From Tolypothrix carrinoi HA7290-LM1 (lineage in GTDB: Bacteria > Cyanobacteriota > Cyanobacteriia > Cyanobacteriales > Nostocaceae), in assembly GCA_019358935.1 (NCBI GenBank), contig JAHHIK010000048.1:1-59111 (forward strand): 59,111 nt of DNA. Reading direction: 5' to 3'. The translations under genes were made by a program, and so were the position numbers. Numbering within the stretch: the stretch's first letter is position 1; each line of letters opens with the position of its first letter. Below, in pieces: positions 5,086 to 11,632 of this stretch. A model generated the notes under the pieces. The model was not told where the DNA came from and did not search any database. It was given only the letters and a program-made list of their open reading frames with translations.

Positions 5086-6009
5086 CTACTGCTGCTGACT
5101 GTCGTTTTTAGTTGAATTATTTTGTCTTTTTCTACCAAGAAGGTTGCCGAAAATTTTCTGGATAAAAGCTATAACTACTATTACTCCAATTATCAGAAAT
5201 TTCTTGGCAGCAAGAAGTGCTAACAGTATACCTTTGAATAAACCAGTTTTTACTGCGACACCACCACCAATTAAAGCTGCTATCCCGTAGCTGGCAATTT
5301 TATCGGAATTCGGATTGAAATCTTCATAGCGATAGCCAGGATTAAATGCCACGCTAGAAAGAACTTTCGGACTGTCTTTCTCAATTAAATTGAGTTGTTC
5401 TAAACCTGCAACTGCATTTAAAACTAACACTCCTTTACGTCCCAAAACGCGAATGTTGTAGTTGAGGGTGTGTTCGTCGCTGTCGCTAACCTTAAAGTCT
5501 TTTGCCCAGTGTAATTTATGATGTGCTTTATCGTAGAAAGGTTGTTTTGCCCAGCCAACTATTTCAATTGCCGGATATCCTTGTTTGACTCGCTGTTCAT
5601 TTCTTTCCTTCGTCGCTTCTTGCATTGTTTTCAGCAGTTTGCTGTAATCGATGCTTTCAGCTTCATCGTCTTTGACATAACCATCTTCTTGATAGGTAAT
5701 GACAACACCCCAGGAATTTTTTGATAGAGGATTAAATTTAGCTGGTACTAGCATTCCTAAAGTACCATCGCCAGATGGATTTCCCCATATTTTTTCTAAG
5801 ACAATTTGCGTTTGCTGAGAATTCAGATATCGTAACTCGGCAGGGACATTTACTGTAGCGACTCCGGACTGCAATGTGATTTTACCTGTTTCATATTTAA
5901 GCTGACTGGCAAGCAATTCTAGATTATCTGCGCCTAGGGCAATATTCGATAACCCAATTACTAATATAAACGATGCGATCGCCAAAATAACTCGCTGAAG
6001 AATTCGCAT
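5086..6009 (-). CDS. DUF2167-family membrane-anchored protein
   Basis: Signal peptide; GYVKDD, LHWAK and NYNIRVLGRKGVLVLNAV motifs; C-terminal TM segment. Confidence 0.85.
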   Translation of the reverse strand: MRILQRVILAIASFILVIGLSNIALGADNLELLASQLKYETGKITLQSGVATVNVPAELRYLNSQQTQIVLEKIWGNPSGDGTLGMLVPAKFNPLSKNSWGVVITYQEDGYVKDDEAESIDYSKLLKTMQEATKERNEQRVKQGYPAIEIVGWAKQPFYDKAHHKLHWAKDFKVSDSDEHTLNYNIRVLGRKGVLVLNAVAGLEQLNLIEKDSPKVLSSVAFNPGYRYEDFNPNSDKIASYGIAALIGGGVAVKTGLFKGILLALLAAKKFLIIGVIVVIAFIQKIFGNLLGRKRQNNSTKNDSQQQ

Positions 6010-6074
6010 ATTGCTCCCCCGTGTGTAAATAATTACGTGAATTGTGATGTTTCACGATAATCTATGTGCTTTAC

Positions 6075-6441
6075 CAAAAATTTGGGTTTAAAGCCTCGCC
6101 TTTCTAAGGCGACTTTTGATTTTGAGTTAGAAATATGGTATTATACTAATGCCCGTAGTCTAGAAGGCTCACGCGCAACGCAAAATTGGGTTTTCCCCAA
6201 CTACAATGCACAAGCTAGTGCGACATAGTGTAGGAAAGAGAAAAGGCAATTGAATAAATCTTTTCAAACGCGGTCGGGCAGCGCCACTTCCCACAACGGG
6301 GGGAACCCCCGCAAGGGAGTGGCTTGTCCGTGTGCGCTTGTGGACGTATCCAAACGGGGATATTTAGATGTTCGCATTTAGGTATCTAGGGAGGACGGAT
6401 GAAGCAAGAATCCTCGCACCTTTAGGTGCGAGGAGTGTCAA
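6075..6441 (+). mobile_element. Non-autonomous IS200/IS605-family element (no tnpA/tnpB) retaining both ends
   Basis: Target TTAC at 6071-6074; AAAG (6090-6093) plus left-end hairpin; GAAT (6408-6411) plus right-end hairpin 6411-6434; terminal TCAA 6438-6441. These are the four IS608 end tetranucleotides. Confidence 0.85.
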
Positions 6442-6461
6442 AAAGGGGGATGCAATAATTG
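6268..6461 (+). ncRNA. Putative TnpB omega/reRNA scaffold plus flanking guide
   Basis: GCTTGTGGA...GAAGCAAGAATC arrangement, a 12-bp stem with UUCG loop (about 6359-6386) containing G-U pairs, and the right-end hairpin. The 5' boundary is approximate. Confidence 0.6.
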
Positions 6462-6558
6462 CGGAAATTTTCATTCGTATCGTATAAATAAATCAAATTG
6501 AAAATAGGTAATTGTATTTACGTTATTTCTAAATGCATTTACTATTACCTATTACCGA

Positions 6559-6594
6559 GTAGTTAGCGCAAAGAGCGCTCTTTGCGCCGACTAC
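6559..6594. repeat. GTAG-flanked REP-like palindrome
   Basis: GTAGTTAGCGCAAAGAG-CG-CTCTTTGCGCCGACTAC. Confidence 0.6.
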
Positions 6595-6644
6595 AAATTT
6601 CAAAACCGCCTTAACAAACGTGCCATTTATTACCGAATCGCTTT

Positions 6645-8552
6645 TTAACCCACAGGTGACGGTTGCTTACTAAAGAAAGCTTTCATCACCGTTTCCGCCA
6701 TTTGCGGACTAGTTAAACCTAAGGAAGCCTTAGATTCATTCGGTTCGGCATGATCTACCAAAATATCTGGTACACCAATTCGCTTCACGGGAACCACAAT
6801 ATCAGCATCTAACAGCGCTTCTGCTACTGCTGAACCGAAGCCACCCATGAGACAGCCTTCTTCTAAAGTGACAACGCGCCCGATTTTTTTCGCCAAAGGT
6901 AAAATTAATTCTGTATCCAGAGGCTTGACAAAACGAGCATTTATGACAGTGGCTTGTATTCCGTGTTCGTTGAGAATCTCGGCAACTTGCATCGCTGGGT
7001 AAACCATTGTGCCGTAACCTAGCAACAACACATCATCGCCATTGCGGAGAATTTCGCCTTTGCCGATTTCCAGAGGTTCCCAGCCTTCTTCCATCAAGGG
7101 AACACCATAACCATTACCGCGAGGAGTACGCATAGCGATCGGTCCAGAGGTATGGTTAATCCCAGTCACCACCATTCGTTGCAATTCCGCTTCATCTTTG
7201 GGTGCCATCACCACGATATTGGGAATACAACGCAGATAGGCGATATCATACATACCTTGGTGCGTCGGACCATCCGCACCGACAATTCCCGCCCGATCCA
7301 TACAGAAGAACACAGGCAAGTTTTGGATGCAGACATCGTGAATTATTTGGTCGAAGGCGCGTTGCAAAAAGGTAGAATAAATGGCAACCACAGGGCGTAT
7401 ACCTTCTGCTGCGAGTCCTGCTGACATTGTAACGGCGTGTTGTTCGGCAATACCGACATCAATATATTGATCGGGCAATTTTGCTTGAAGTTTGTCTAAA
7501 CCTGTTCCTGTAGCCATCGCTGCCGTGATGCCGATGATTTTCGGGTTTTGTTCGGCGAGTTTCACTAAGGTGTGGGCAAAGACTTTGGCGTAAGCTGGCG
7601 GTTTGGGTTTGCTGGAAGGAACGGCTTTGCCAGTTAGCACATTAAACGGATTTTGGGCATGGTAGCCTACTTTGTCTAGTTCGGCGATTTCATAACCTTT
7701 GCCTTTTGTGGTGGCTACATGCACCAACACAGGACCGGTCATCTTATGTGCCTGTTCAAAGGTGGCGATTAATTCTTCTAAATTATGCCCGTCTACAGGT
7801 CCCATGTAGGTAAAGCCGAGTTCTTCAAAGACTGCGCCGACTTTGGGAACGGCTAACCGCTTCATTCCTTCTTTGATGCGTTCTAATTCCGGTGAAAGAG
7901 ATTCTCCAACAAAGGGAATTTGCTTGACTTGTTCCTCAAAGTTATCTTTGATAAATTGTACTGGGGGACTGAGACGCATTTTGTTGAGGTAACGAGGAAT
8001 CGCCCCAACGTTAGGAGAAATTGACATTTCGTTGTCGTTGAGGACAACTAATAAGTTAGTTTTGGGCAAGTGTCCAGCATGGTTGATGCATTCTAACGCC
8101 ATACCGCCAGTTAGCGCACCATCACCGATAATGGCGACAACTTTAAATTTTTCGCCTTTCATATCTCGCGCTAAAGCCATACCCAATGCCGCTGAGATAC
8201 TGGTTGAAGCATGTCCCGCGCCAAAGTGGTCAAACTTACTTTCACCGCGCTTGAGATAACCGGCAATTCCGTCTTTTTGCCGCAAGGTGTGGAAATTATC
8301 GTAACGCCCTGTAATTAGTTTATGGGGATAAGCTTGGTGTCCGACATCCCAAATGACTTTATCACAATCTAAATCTAGTGTCTGATAAAGCCCTAGGGTT
8401 AACTCTACAACACCTAACCCCGGTCCCAGATGTCCCCCAGTTGCGGCTACGGTTTGCAGATGCTTATCCCGAATTTGACGGGCAATTTGCTGCAACTGCC
8501 TAATCGATAAGCCGTGTAACTGGTTGGGATGGGTAATTTCACTCAGGTGCAT
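6645..8552 (-). CDS. dxs: 1-deoxy-D-xylulose-5-phosphate synthase
   Basis: [30 protein letters not shown] and DGPTHQG motifs. Confidence 0.98.
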
Positions 8553-8632
8553 ACTAATAGGTTTTCCTCTCTACTGATCGTATTATGATTTTCCCACGCT
8601 GATGTTGCCACTTGAGAGAAAAGGTGACAATA

Positions 8633-8794
8633 GGGGCATGGGGCATGGGGCATGGGGCAATGGGCATGGGGCATGGGGCAATGGGCAAGAAAGAGGGGGA
8701 AAGGGAAAAGGGTAAAGGGTAAAGGGCAAGAAAGAAGAAATATTTCTCCCCAGCTCCCCATGCCCCATGCCCTATGCCCCATGCCCCATTACCC
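8633..8794. repeat. STRR arrays (GGGGCAT / AAAGGGG / ATGCCCC)
   Basis: 7-bp tandem units in inverted orientation. Confidence 0.9.
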
Positions 8795-8798
8795 ACTG

Positions 8799-9461
8799 TC
8801 ATTTATTCGGCGCTGCTGGTGCTTCTGGTGTTTCGGGTTGTGGCTGTTGTCTTTGCAAATATTTACTCAAGACGTATGCCATATCCCCGCGTGTCATCGG
8901 TTTTAATGGGGCTATATTACCTTGTGCGTCTGTGTTGACGAATCCTTCACTAATTACTGTGGCGATCGCTTTTTTTGCCCAATCAGGAATTGTCTGCGCG
9001 TCTGGGTGAGAAGCAAGAATTTCATTTACTGTATCGTCGGGAAACTGAAATACACCATAAGCTTGGGCAAAAATCGCTAAAGCTTCTGCCCTTGTCACTT
9101 TTTGGTTGGGGAAAAACATATTTCCCCGATAGCCTTTCATAATCTCAGTTTTTAAGACTATTTGAATATCATTAAATGCTGGATTTGACGGCGCTACATC
9201 GGGAACTACTAGATTTTCTTTACTAATAGCCTGTCTTTTATCCAGTCGAAAGGCTTTCACCATAATCGAAGCTAATTCGGCACGACTGATTAACCTTTCT
9301 GTATAAAAGTTCCCATCAGGATAGTTGGTCATTAACTTTGCTGCAATTACCTGCTGAATTGAATCAAATGGTATAGCAGCTTGCGCGTTAACACGCAGCG
9401 GAAAATATTGTATTGCTACTATCGTAATAGTACTTAGTAGCTTATGCATGATTTTAACCAT
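8799..9461 (-). CDS. S-layer homology (SLH) domain protein
   Basis: Signal peptide and three SLH repeats (ISRAELA, VTRAEAL, MTRGDMA). Start may be ATG 9449. Confidence 0.9.
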   Translation of the reverse strand: MVKIMHKLLSTITIVAIQYFPLRVNAQAAIPFDSIQQVIAAKLMTNYPDGNFYTERLISRAELASIMVKAFRLDKRQAISKENLVVPDVAPSNPAFNDIQIVLKTEIMKGYRGNMFFPNQKVTRAEALAIFAQAYGVFQFPDDTVNEILASHPDAQTIPDWAKKAIATVISEGFVNTDAQGNIAPLKPMTRGDMAYVLSKYLQRQQPQPETPEAPAAPNK

Positions 9462-9560
9462 TTTTATAATGCAAATGCGGTACTTTGGTTAACATCAATT
9501 GTGATTAACTTATCTGGTGACGAATTGATGCTTGGCGATGTTGCCAACCCGCGAGAAGAA

Positions 9561-9675
9561 GGGGGAAGGGGAAAGGGGAAAGGGGAAGGGGGAATGGGGA
9601 ATGGGGAATGGGGAATGGGGAATGGGGAATGGGGAATGGGGAAAGGGGAAAGGGGAAAGGGGAAAGGTAAAAGGT
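9561..9675. repeat. STRR array (GGGGAAA / GGGGAAT)
   Basis: 7-bp tandem units. Confidence 0.9.
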
Positions 9676-11346: not shown

Positions 11347-11632
11347 ACTAGGGACTAGGGACTAGGGACTAGGGACTAGGGACTAGGGGACAAGGAGGAC
11401 AAGGAGGACAAGGAGGACAAGGAGGACAAGGAGGACAAGGGGGAAATATTTTTTCTTTGTTACCCATTACCCATTACCCATTACCCATTACCCATTACCC
11501 ATGCCCAATGACGGCAGATGCTCCACTTGGGGAGCCAGCCGCGTGCGGGGGTTCCCCCCGTTGAGCGGACTGGCGTGAGACCCCAAGACCGCACAGCCAA
11601 ACCTATGCCCCATGCCCAATGCCCCATTACCC
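11347..11632. repeat. STRR arrays (GACTAGG, GGACAAGGA, ATTACCC) plus a nested small dispersed repeat
   Basis: Tandem 7/9-mers. 11509-11610 matches 55518-55574 apart from a 45-bp insert. Confidence 0.88.

Follow-up and report, generated by a model that had tools for sequence, protein, structure and literature searches.

In the outline given in 10.1101/2023.03.14.532601, excision of IS605 elements by TnpA leaves no scar, TnpB cleaves the site left empty, and recombination restores the element. PATE-like IS200/IS605 elements without open reading frames (ORFs) but with omega-RNAs are known from Geobacillus stearothermophilus. In the parts of the same report that deal with them, they are gene-less, have IS605 ends with TAM/TEM and DNA guides, carry the omega-RNA at the right end and are said to need both TnpB and TnpA in trans. 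Standalone omega-RNAs of OMEGA systems are effector-less, mobilised loci in genomes that hold effector loci; they are reported to be active in trans, and their biology is called unknown in the relevant section of PMC10691335. The PATEs of Haloquadratum walsbyi have subterminal palindromes, lack inverted repeats, target duplication and a transposase, and are often hit by small mobile repeats; the passages of PMC3119063 that characterise them describe them as deletion products. Two gene-bearing systems are also relevant. IS608, according to a figure legend in PMC5934647, combines subterminal hairpins with the tetranucleotides TTAC (CL), AAAG (GL), GAAT (GR) and TCAA (CR) and carries tnpA and tnpB. 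The omega-RNA of ISDra2, as presented in PMC10097598, folds into stems 1-4 and has a pseudoknot that joins the loop of stem 1 to the final nucleotides ahead of the guide; its 5' extension is dispensable tnpB coding sequence.

The element described here lies in a 59,111-nt stretch of the Tolypothrix carrinoi HA7290-LM1 genome (contig JAHHIK010000048.1), hereafter the window. It shares the gene-less state, the type of ends and guides and the right-end omega-RNA with the Geobacillus elements, and its family is likewise proposed to depend on TnpA and TnpB in trans. Since gene-less IS605 elements with omega-RNAs are in print, this type of element is not new. Unlike in the Geobacillus PATEs, for which the parts of the report mentioned above name no conserved 5' leader RNA, the place of tnpB is taken here by a pseudoknotted module of 90 nt that has its own promoter. 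The standalone OMEGA omega-RNAs, similarly effector-less loci in effector-holding genomes, also come with no leader in the section cited, whereas the window family has one and the window copy is predicted to be impaired. Subterminal palindromes, the lack of inverted repeats, target duplication and transposase, and a hit by a small repeat are common to the window element and the Haloquadratum PATEs, but the interior of the former is a conserved RNA module distinct from tnpB rather than a deletion product. The four tetranucleotides and the hairpins are those of IS608, of whose two genes the window element has neither. The stems and the pseudoknot resemble those of ISDra2; the sequence lineage and the TAM differ, and the 5' extension is a conserved non-coding fold rather than coding sequence. 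The literature searched holds no description of the leader; the supplements of 10.1101/2023.03.14.532601 or the primary 2021 paper on standalone omega-RNAs could contain one. We propose that this gene-less TTAC element probably gives rise to one RNA made of leader, linker, scaffold and guide and uses the TnpA and TnpB of other elements, while in the window copy the guide is predicted to be disabled by an insert.

The whole element, delimited by its copies, empty alleles and an end scan, occupies 367 bp of the plus strand (6075..6441). It directly follows TTAC (6071..6074, +), which lies outside the element and which empty alleles and the likeness to IS608 mark as the target, left cleavage site and predicted TAM. 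The left end (6090..6113, +) consists of the guide AAAG (6090-6093) and a subterminal hairpin (6095-6113). The right end (6408..6441, +) contains the guide GAAT (6408-6411), a hairpin with 11-bp arms (6411-6434) that is also omega stem 4, and TCAA (6438-6441). Subterminal hairpins are present and terminal inverted repeats are absent. No ORF of at least 60 aa overlaps 6075-6441, and transposase and nuclease genes are absent from the element. The original prediction had named these ends, the length and the missing ORF, and all were found in the sequence; its equation of the tetranucleotides with the IS608 set agrees with the legend in PMC5934647. A scan for IS608-type end pairs 250-500 bp apart returned five in the 7.96-Mb genome (184 contigs), namely the window element and four other ORF-less elements, versus 0, 0 and 0 in three block-shuffled genomes. 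AAAG occurs together with TTAC in 25 of the 34 complete family members, a motif count that is not independent because end detection was keyed on TTAC/AAAG/GAAT/TCAA. In one locus (L216) the target TGAC accompanies the left guide CAAG; CAAG is found with TTAC in L219, so that target-guide covariation is not clean.

The element is located between a DUF2167 gene (5086..6009, -), whose upstream hairpin is the place of insertion, and dxs, encoding 1-deoxy-D-xylulose-5-phosphate synthase (6645..8552, -). When 61 genomes, ten of them congeners, were searched with positions 5700-6900, the flanks were found joined without the element in two of the ten congeneric genomes (G001 and G009). The empty site, TTAC followed by AAAGGGGGATG, is present in both, and both read TTTAC followed by AAAGGGGGATGCAATAATTG; in the remaining eight congeners no match joined the two flanks. 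The exact junction of TTAC and flank that had been anticipated for the empty allele is thus on record. Insertion took place 3' of TTAC without target duplication, as seen from these two empty alleles and from own-genome copies at other TTAC sites. Sibling copies had been anticipated as well, and three relatives in the same genome (C28, C34 and C86) begin after TTAC, end at TCAA and have flanks unrelated to those of the window. The closest, C28, is only 88% identical over the shared part, which leaves the window element without an identical twin. Among all loci fetched, 34 complete members of its leader type occupy 34 different sites. The segment 6075-6441 is therefore an ORF-less, non-autonomous IS200/IS605 element truly inserted at TTAC.

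Two minor observations concern the surroundings of such elements. The empty allele (6007-6074 joined to 6442-6460; L002, L003) forms a long hairpin of predicted -28 to -36 kcal/mol with arms 6009-6020 and 6446-6457. Read on the minus strand, this hairpin engages the ribosome-binding site and the start of the DUF2167 gene in pairing. Insertion shifts one hairpin arm 367 nt away, and expression of the gene may change. Separately, an identical IS605 right end recurs at the ends of seven contigs of the genome (G000; C13, C17, C20, C117, C133, C169 and C176) and represents a high-copy unassembled TnpB element of another clade.

Sequence comparison establishes that the 3' part of the window element descends from a tnpB tail and ends at the right end. 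From about position 6258 one frame reads I-F-S-N-A-V-G, resembling the tails of tnpB genes, and the 3' part can be aligned to two tnpB-bearing elements at their 3' ends. This old tnpB frame covers the 3' part of an A/T-rich linker (6243..6267, +; 23-28 nt in the family). The scaffold follows with the 5' strand and GGGCA loop of omega stem 1 (6268..6280, +), the GGCA of which (6277-6280) pairs with TGTC (6436-6439) in the pseudoknot of the family. It continues from 6326 to 6410 (+) with the 3' strand of stem 1 (6326-6333), stem 2 (CTTG 6337-6340 with CAAG 6405-6408) and stems 3a and 3b. In an alignment of 30 sequences, 28 gene-less and two tnpB-linked, 95.4% of 1143 cells are paired, versus 88.7% after shuffling and 34-48% when the strands are slid. 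Changes on both sides are seen in 22 of 43 pairs, a number reached in none of 500 shuffles; kinship can beat such shuffles without structure, and the slid controls nonetheless drop to 34-48%. The GGCA/TGTC pseudoknot is paired in 120 of 120 cells, where one-sided exchanges between G-U and A-U and between C-G and U-G leave the pairing intact. On this comparative evidence, the whole family conserves four stems and the terminal pseudoknot of a TnpB omega-RNA. The segment 6265-6461 folds at z = -6.0, with part of the signal coming from an inserted repeat.

The presence of a TnpB-type scaffold had been predicted, and our covariation model fits it; the noted pairing potential of CTTG and CAAG proved to be omega stem 2. 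A check by covariance models had a divided outcome, since our own model fits and the Rfam scan returned no match for the window copy; RAGATH-18 (RF03064) scored 26.2 and 21.8 bits on two related scaffolds, below its 44.9 cut-off. Two points of the original prediction need correcting: the UUCG loop is closed by G-C and, not being conserved in relatives, is rejected as a feature of the family; and 6281-6325 is the inserted repeat, not scaffold. A scaffold pattern search of the species collection yielded at least 118 stretches, and 80 of 80 among the matches listed are cyanobacterial; viral contigs gave 0 matches. With earlier loci included there are 139 scaffold matches, of which 108 are distinct with enough upstream DNA; tnpB coding sequence lies upstream of the scaffold in three loci (L067, L143 and L157). 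The predicted guide is the host flank AAAGGGGGATGCAATAATTG (6442..6461, +), which agrees with the empty allele of G001 and G009 at 20 of 20 nt and thus matches TAM plus empty site. No other close TTAC-adjacent guide target was found in the genome. A guide aimed at another host site was considered and rejected, as the best TTAC-adjacent match has five matched seed bases.

Enzymes that could act in trans are encoded in the same genome, in line with the prediction that they would be supplied from elsewhere: it has 51 TnpB zinc-finger hits and seven Y1 transposase hits. An intact TnpB of 406 aa on contig C15 (L178) scores 292.8 bits with NF040570, above the cut-off, and has the D/E/D acidic motifs. 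Its element has a TTAC target and a GTGTCAA end, and 69-73 of 102 scaffold nucleotides are identical to family scaffolds. The expected autonomous parent has a partial counterpart in this TTAC-type TnpB with a related scaffold; the fragmented assembly, which breaks at many repeats, contains neither a tnpB element with exactly the long scaffold type nor a tnpA element with exactly the window's ends, and none of the seven Y1 hits could be tied to those ends. A search of the run index found no run of the organism itself, the best run holding 0.17 of the words. Contigs of relatives in six metatranscriptome runs cover leader, scaffold and left end, a kind of record that cannot show transcription.

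Upstream of the linker, positions 6150-6242 form the new part of the element: a conserved, covarying, two-domain pseudoknotted leader RNA, as judged from alignments of its family. It is preceded by a predicted sigma-70 promoter (6116..6144, +) composed of TTGATT, a 17-nt spacer and a TG-extended TATTAT, with a predicted start at about 6150. A promoter-like site had been noted here. The motif match by itself is at chance level (one found versus 1.6 expected), but its position is conserved, the -10 hexamer lying 5 nt before the first helix of the leader in 18 of 20 family members; TTGACA is perfect in seven. Domain 1 (6150..6182, +) comprises the 5'-terminal helix P1, in which one pair is broken in the window copy, and an inner hairpin. 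Domain 2 (6186..6242, +) contains hairpin P2 (6186-6200), whose loop TTTTC pairs with GAGAA (6238-6242) in a predicted pseudoknot, and this pseudoknot encloses hairpin P3 (CTACA 6201-6205 with TGTAG 6229-6233). The original prediction had regarded the segment as unexplained cargo with CTACA...TGTAG pairing potential; the pairing stands as P3, but the segment is a conserved leader RNA family plus the linker.

In 20 complete elements (190 pairs) the mean identity is 87% for domain 2 and 67% for domain 1, whereas the spacer that separates the left end from the promoter reaches 48% and the flanks 40%. Leader pairs are kept in 93.1% of 700 cells in 27 close members and in 94.1% of 544 cells in 25 more diverse members, an alignment from which four sequences of genus g93 were left out because MAFFT misaligned their 3' half. 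Two-sided changes occur in P1, the inner hairpin, P3 and the middle pseudoknot pair (U-A to C-G). The number of covarying pairs is not above that in shuffles (257 and 135 of 500), and the covariation comes from few independent events among related sequences. The two-sided pseudoknot change is seen in three copies of a single genome, and the outer pseudoknot pairs are often broken. Among the unpaired residues, a bulged AG in P3 and a GAA junction are conserved. The window leader is the weakest member of the training set of leader model R1 (77 bits; others 84-119), and its minimum-energy structure is not the one shared by the family (z = -2.2). Taken with the scaffold, this pattern bears on whether the element is merely a passenger mobilised by TnpA, with scaffold and leader as recent deletion remnants or as DNA hairpins devoid of RNA function. 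All IS605 derivatives do keep the right-end sequence; but the scaffold pairs, including the long-range pseudoknot, are maintained with G-U swaps, and the leader is far better conserved than the adjacent spacer, is not derived from tnpB and has its promoter at a fixed distance, making the passenger reading extremely improbable.

For the family as a whole we favour an RNA-based cycle. Leader, linker, scaffold and flank guide would be transcribed as one RNA from the element's own promoter. TnpA in trans would peel and paste the element; TnpB made elsewhere would trim the 5' part of the transcript and load the guide. After excision TnpB would cut TTAC plus flank, and recombination with an occupied chromosome copy would restore the element. 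The leader may take the place of the tnpB reading frame that the element no longer has, shielding the 5' side and helping the RNA to fold: a helix formed by the very first nucleotides, backed by a pseudoknot, could let the untranslated precursor survive until TnpB arrives. Since the same slot is occupied by unrelated folds, which invariably start with the first base transcribed, a generic role in protecting and folding ribosome-free RNA is the simplest. We put forward this stabiliser of the guide precursor as a tentative proposal with, among the roles considered for the leader, not quite an even chance of being right.

Two more specific roles were weighed. The leader could be a small ribozyme of a new kind, which cleaves or processes itself and so releases the 5' end of the omega-RNA without TnpB. 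Its size (about 90 nt), pseudoknot, conserved unpaired residues (the AG bulge and GAA junction), occurrence in nine families and position immediately 5' of the scaffold would suit such an activity; however, no Rfam ribozyme matched at lax thresholds, the same slot is filled by four unrelated leader folds, and TnpB itself can trim 5' extensions, the experiments described in PMC10278001 showing that purified TnpB trims the 5' side of separately supplied RNA. We consider a ribozyme very unlikely. Alternatively, the pseudoknot could lock a Shine-Dalgarno-like purine run (GGAAAGAG; GGGAG in a second leader type, type B), and its opening by a ligand, a protein or the 30S subunit would gate the amount of guide or, ancestrally, the translation of tnpB. 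A pseudoknot partner that is purine-rich in all members, the similar pairing by eye of ACTCC with GGGAG in type B leaders and the conserved unpaired positions all point this way. Against the switch, neither tnpB nor another conserved gene follows the leader in any of 100 loci, 15 of 42 members lack a start codon after the purine run, the frame elsewhere ranging from 5 to 58 codons, and no riboswitch family matches, so that it too appears improbable, if less so than the ribozyme. Rfam 15, scanned with riboswitches, ribozymes, HEARO, IS605-orfB and RAGATH families over the window, six elements of the own genome and two clean relatives, gave no leader match at E up to 5, and at E up to 10 no hit came close to a gathering score. 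Several further candidates were rejected. The layouts of HDV-like, hammerhead, twister, pistol and preQ1 RNAs do not fit in a comparison by eye, next to which Rfam alone counts as a test. A small peptide in the leader has no conserved start or length. A translational leader of tnpB is at odds with its position upstream of a tnpB reading frame in 0 of 100 loci. A boxA in the leader or linker of the window copy scores 7 of 13 against the rrn spacer boxA of a relative and 7-9 in 20 members, the chance level; the reference was taken from relatives because the rRNA operon is absent from the assembly.

The leader was found by DNA search in 14 of 389 genomes of the family. Covariance models, applied to 151 genomes at each of three levels, detected it in four at class level, 15 at order level and 20 at family level, counts that include the own genome and weak hits. 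The finds at the order level cover the own family and eight others, that is, at least nine cyanobacterial families. All 21 metagenome matches detected by the leader alone continue into the scaffold, one of them ending early. Of 79 distinct leader sites, 62 have scaffold and right end by automatic assignment, six are cut by contig ends and 11 are others, the classifier being loose and part of the loci having been found through the scaffold itself; ten of the 11 show a scaffold by eye. L269 and L254 are exceptions. None of 100 loci (72 + 28, partly overlapping) has tnpB inside the leader-bearing element; in L222 a tnpB fragment lies 800 nt beyond the right end. Viral contigs gave 0 matches to the leader pattern, and element traces in plasmid and phage records are limited to end fragments in one plasmid and six phage records.

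The leader is joined to at least four end and scaffold lineages (TTAC with long scaffold, TTAC with short scaffold, TTTAT-type and TCAC-ended), and the scaffold lineage of the window also bears the unrelated type B leader. In the own genome, all ten gene-less IS605-type elements whose interior was read have a structured leader, of four unrelated types. The 108 distinct loci comprise 22 with type A, 80 with type B, the commonest among relatives, and six that are unassigned. It is conceivable that in gene-less IS605 elements of cyanobacteria an uncatalogued class of interchangeable pseudoknotted modules replaces tnpB and actively controls guide production, as a ribozyme releasing the omega-RNA or as a switch that senses a ligand or protein and gates TnpB loading, with some copies, fixed at one locus across species, perhaps serving the host; this broader scheme strikes us as unlikely, though worth keeping in view.

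The other leader types have features of their own. Type B is found in four gene-less IS605 elements of the genome (G000 C34, C86, C93 and C40; L170, L171, L173 and L175), with two left-end and scaffold types and with apparent covariation in the ACTCC/GGGAG pairing seen by eye. Type C (G000 C1 and C97, that is, L172 and L174; also L048) has a 5' H-type pseudoknot by eye, a boxA-like motif with 10-11 of 13 positions shared with the rrn spacer boxA and a second pseudoknotted domain. Type D (G000 C51 and C4; L176 and L177) precedes longer scaffolds with nested repeat insertions. Cassettes of leader and scaffold are also found at one locus in four g93 species (L225, L243, L248 and L249), where the right end is decaying, and at one locus in two genera (L273 and L274), where the guide overlaps a host start codon. 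These fixed cassettes are candidates for domestication.

The window copy differs from most of its relatives in the state of its scaffold. Positions 6281..6325 (+) are, by BLAST and copy count, a 45-bp dispersed hairpin repeat unrelated to the element, which was overlooked in the original prediction and sits just 3' of the pseudoknot loop. The genome gives 42-44 overlapping BLAST hits to it and 12 copies within six mismatches; it is absent from C34, C86 and most relatives. With the insert, the unpaired probability of the loop is predicted at 0.00-0.01, versus 0.93-1.0 without it. Freeing loop and tail of the window copy would cost 8.8 kcal/mol, the highest value among 41 family scaffolds and equalled only by C28, while the 38 insert-free scaffolds require 0-5.3 kcal/mol. 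These are nearest-neighbour predictions without pseudoknot or protein energy and hence only lower the likelihood that the window copy is active. The guide of the window copy is probably impaired, since the insert beside the pseudoknot loop is predicted to lock that loop. The claim that the RNA loads a TnpB and cuts the empty allele thus appears doubtful for the window copy and likely for the family.

The window copy might instead be a fully active guide donor: in the presence of TnpB and the pseudoknot, its 45-nt insert would fold into a side hairpin of its own. A fold with free loop and tail exists, promoter, ends and other stems are intact, and the insert-bearing form went on spreading to judge from its three different sites (window, C28 and L031). 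Spreading, however, requires TnpA alone, the 8.8 kcal/mol exceed everything seen in insert-free scaffolds, and the insert of L031 has one substitution that lowers the predicted cost to 0.1 kcal/mol; full activity is therefore rather unlikely, and impairment by the insert is the reading we retain. The L031 substitution, which restores the predicted pseudoknot-ready fold, may be a compensatory change, seen in a single case. The window element and C28 (L169) have the insert and the 3' half in common and differ in leader subtype and promoter, which points to recombination between copies.

The family allows a direct test of how an untranslated guide competes for TnpB made elsewhere, and one genome offers the assets for it: a natural promoter, a 90-nt covarying leader, a candidate helper TnpB and an exact known empty allele. 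Should the leader prove to increase the stability or loading of the guide, TnpB editing would gain a ready-made part; a catalytic or ligand-binding leader would constitute a new class of RNA. For such a test the window copy itself is poorly suited, and it illustrates how a small repeat may silence such a parasite. Elsewhere in the window, a further copy of the dispersed hairpin repeat is found at 11533-11575, and the intergenic segments 8543-8800 and 9470-9650 consist of short tandem repeats of the CCCCATG / GGGAATG type, which give spurious ORFs.
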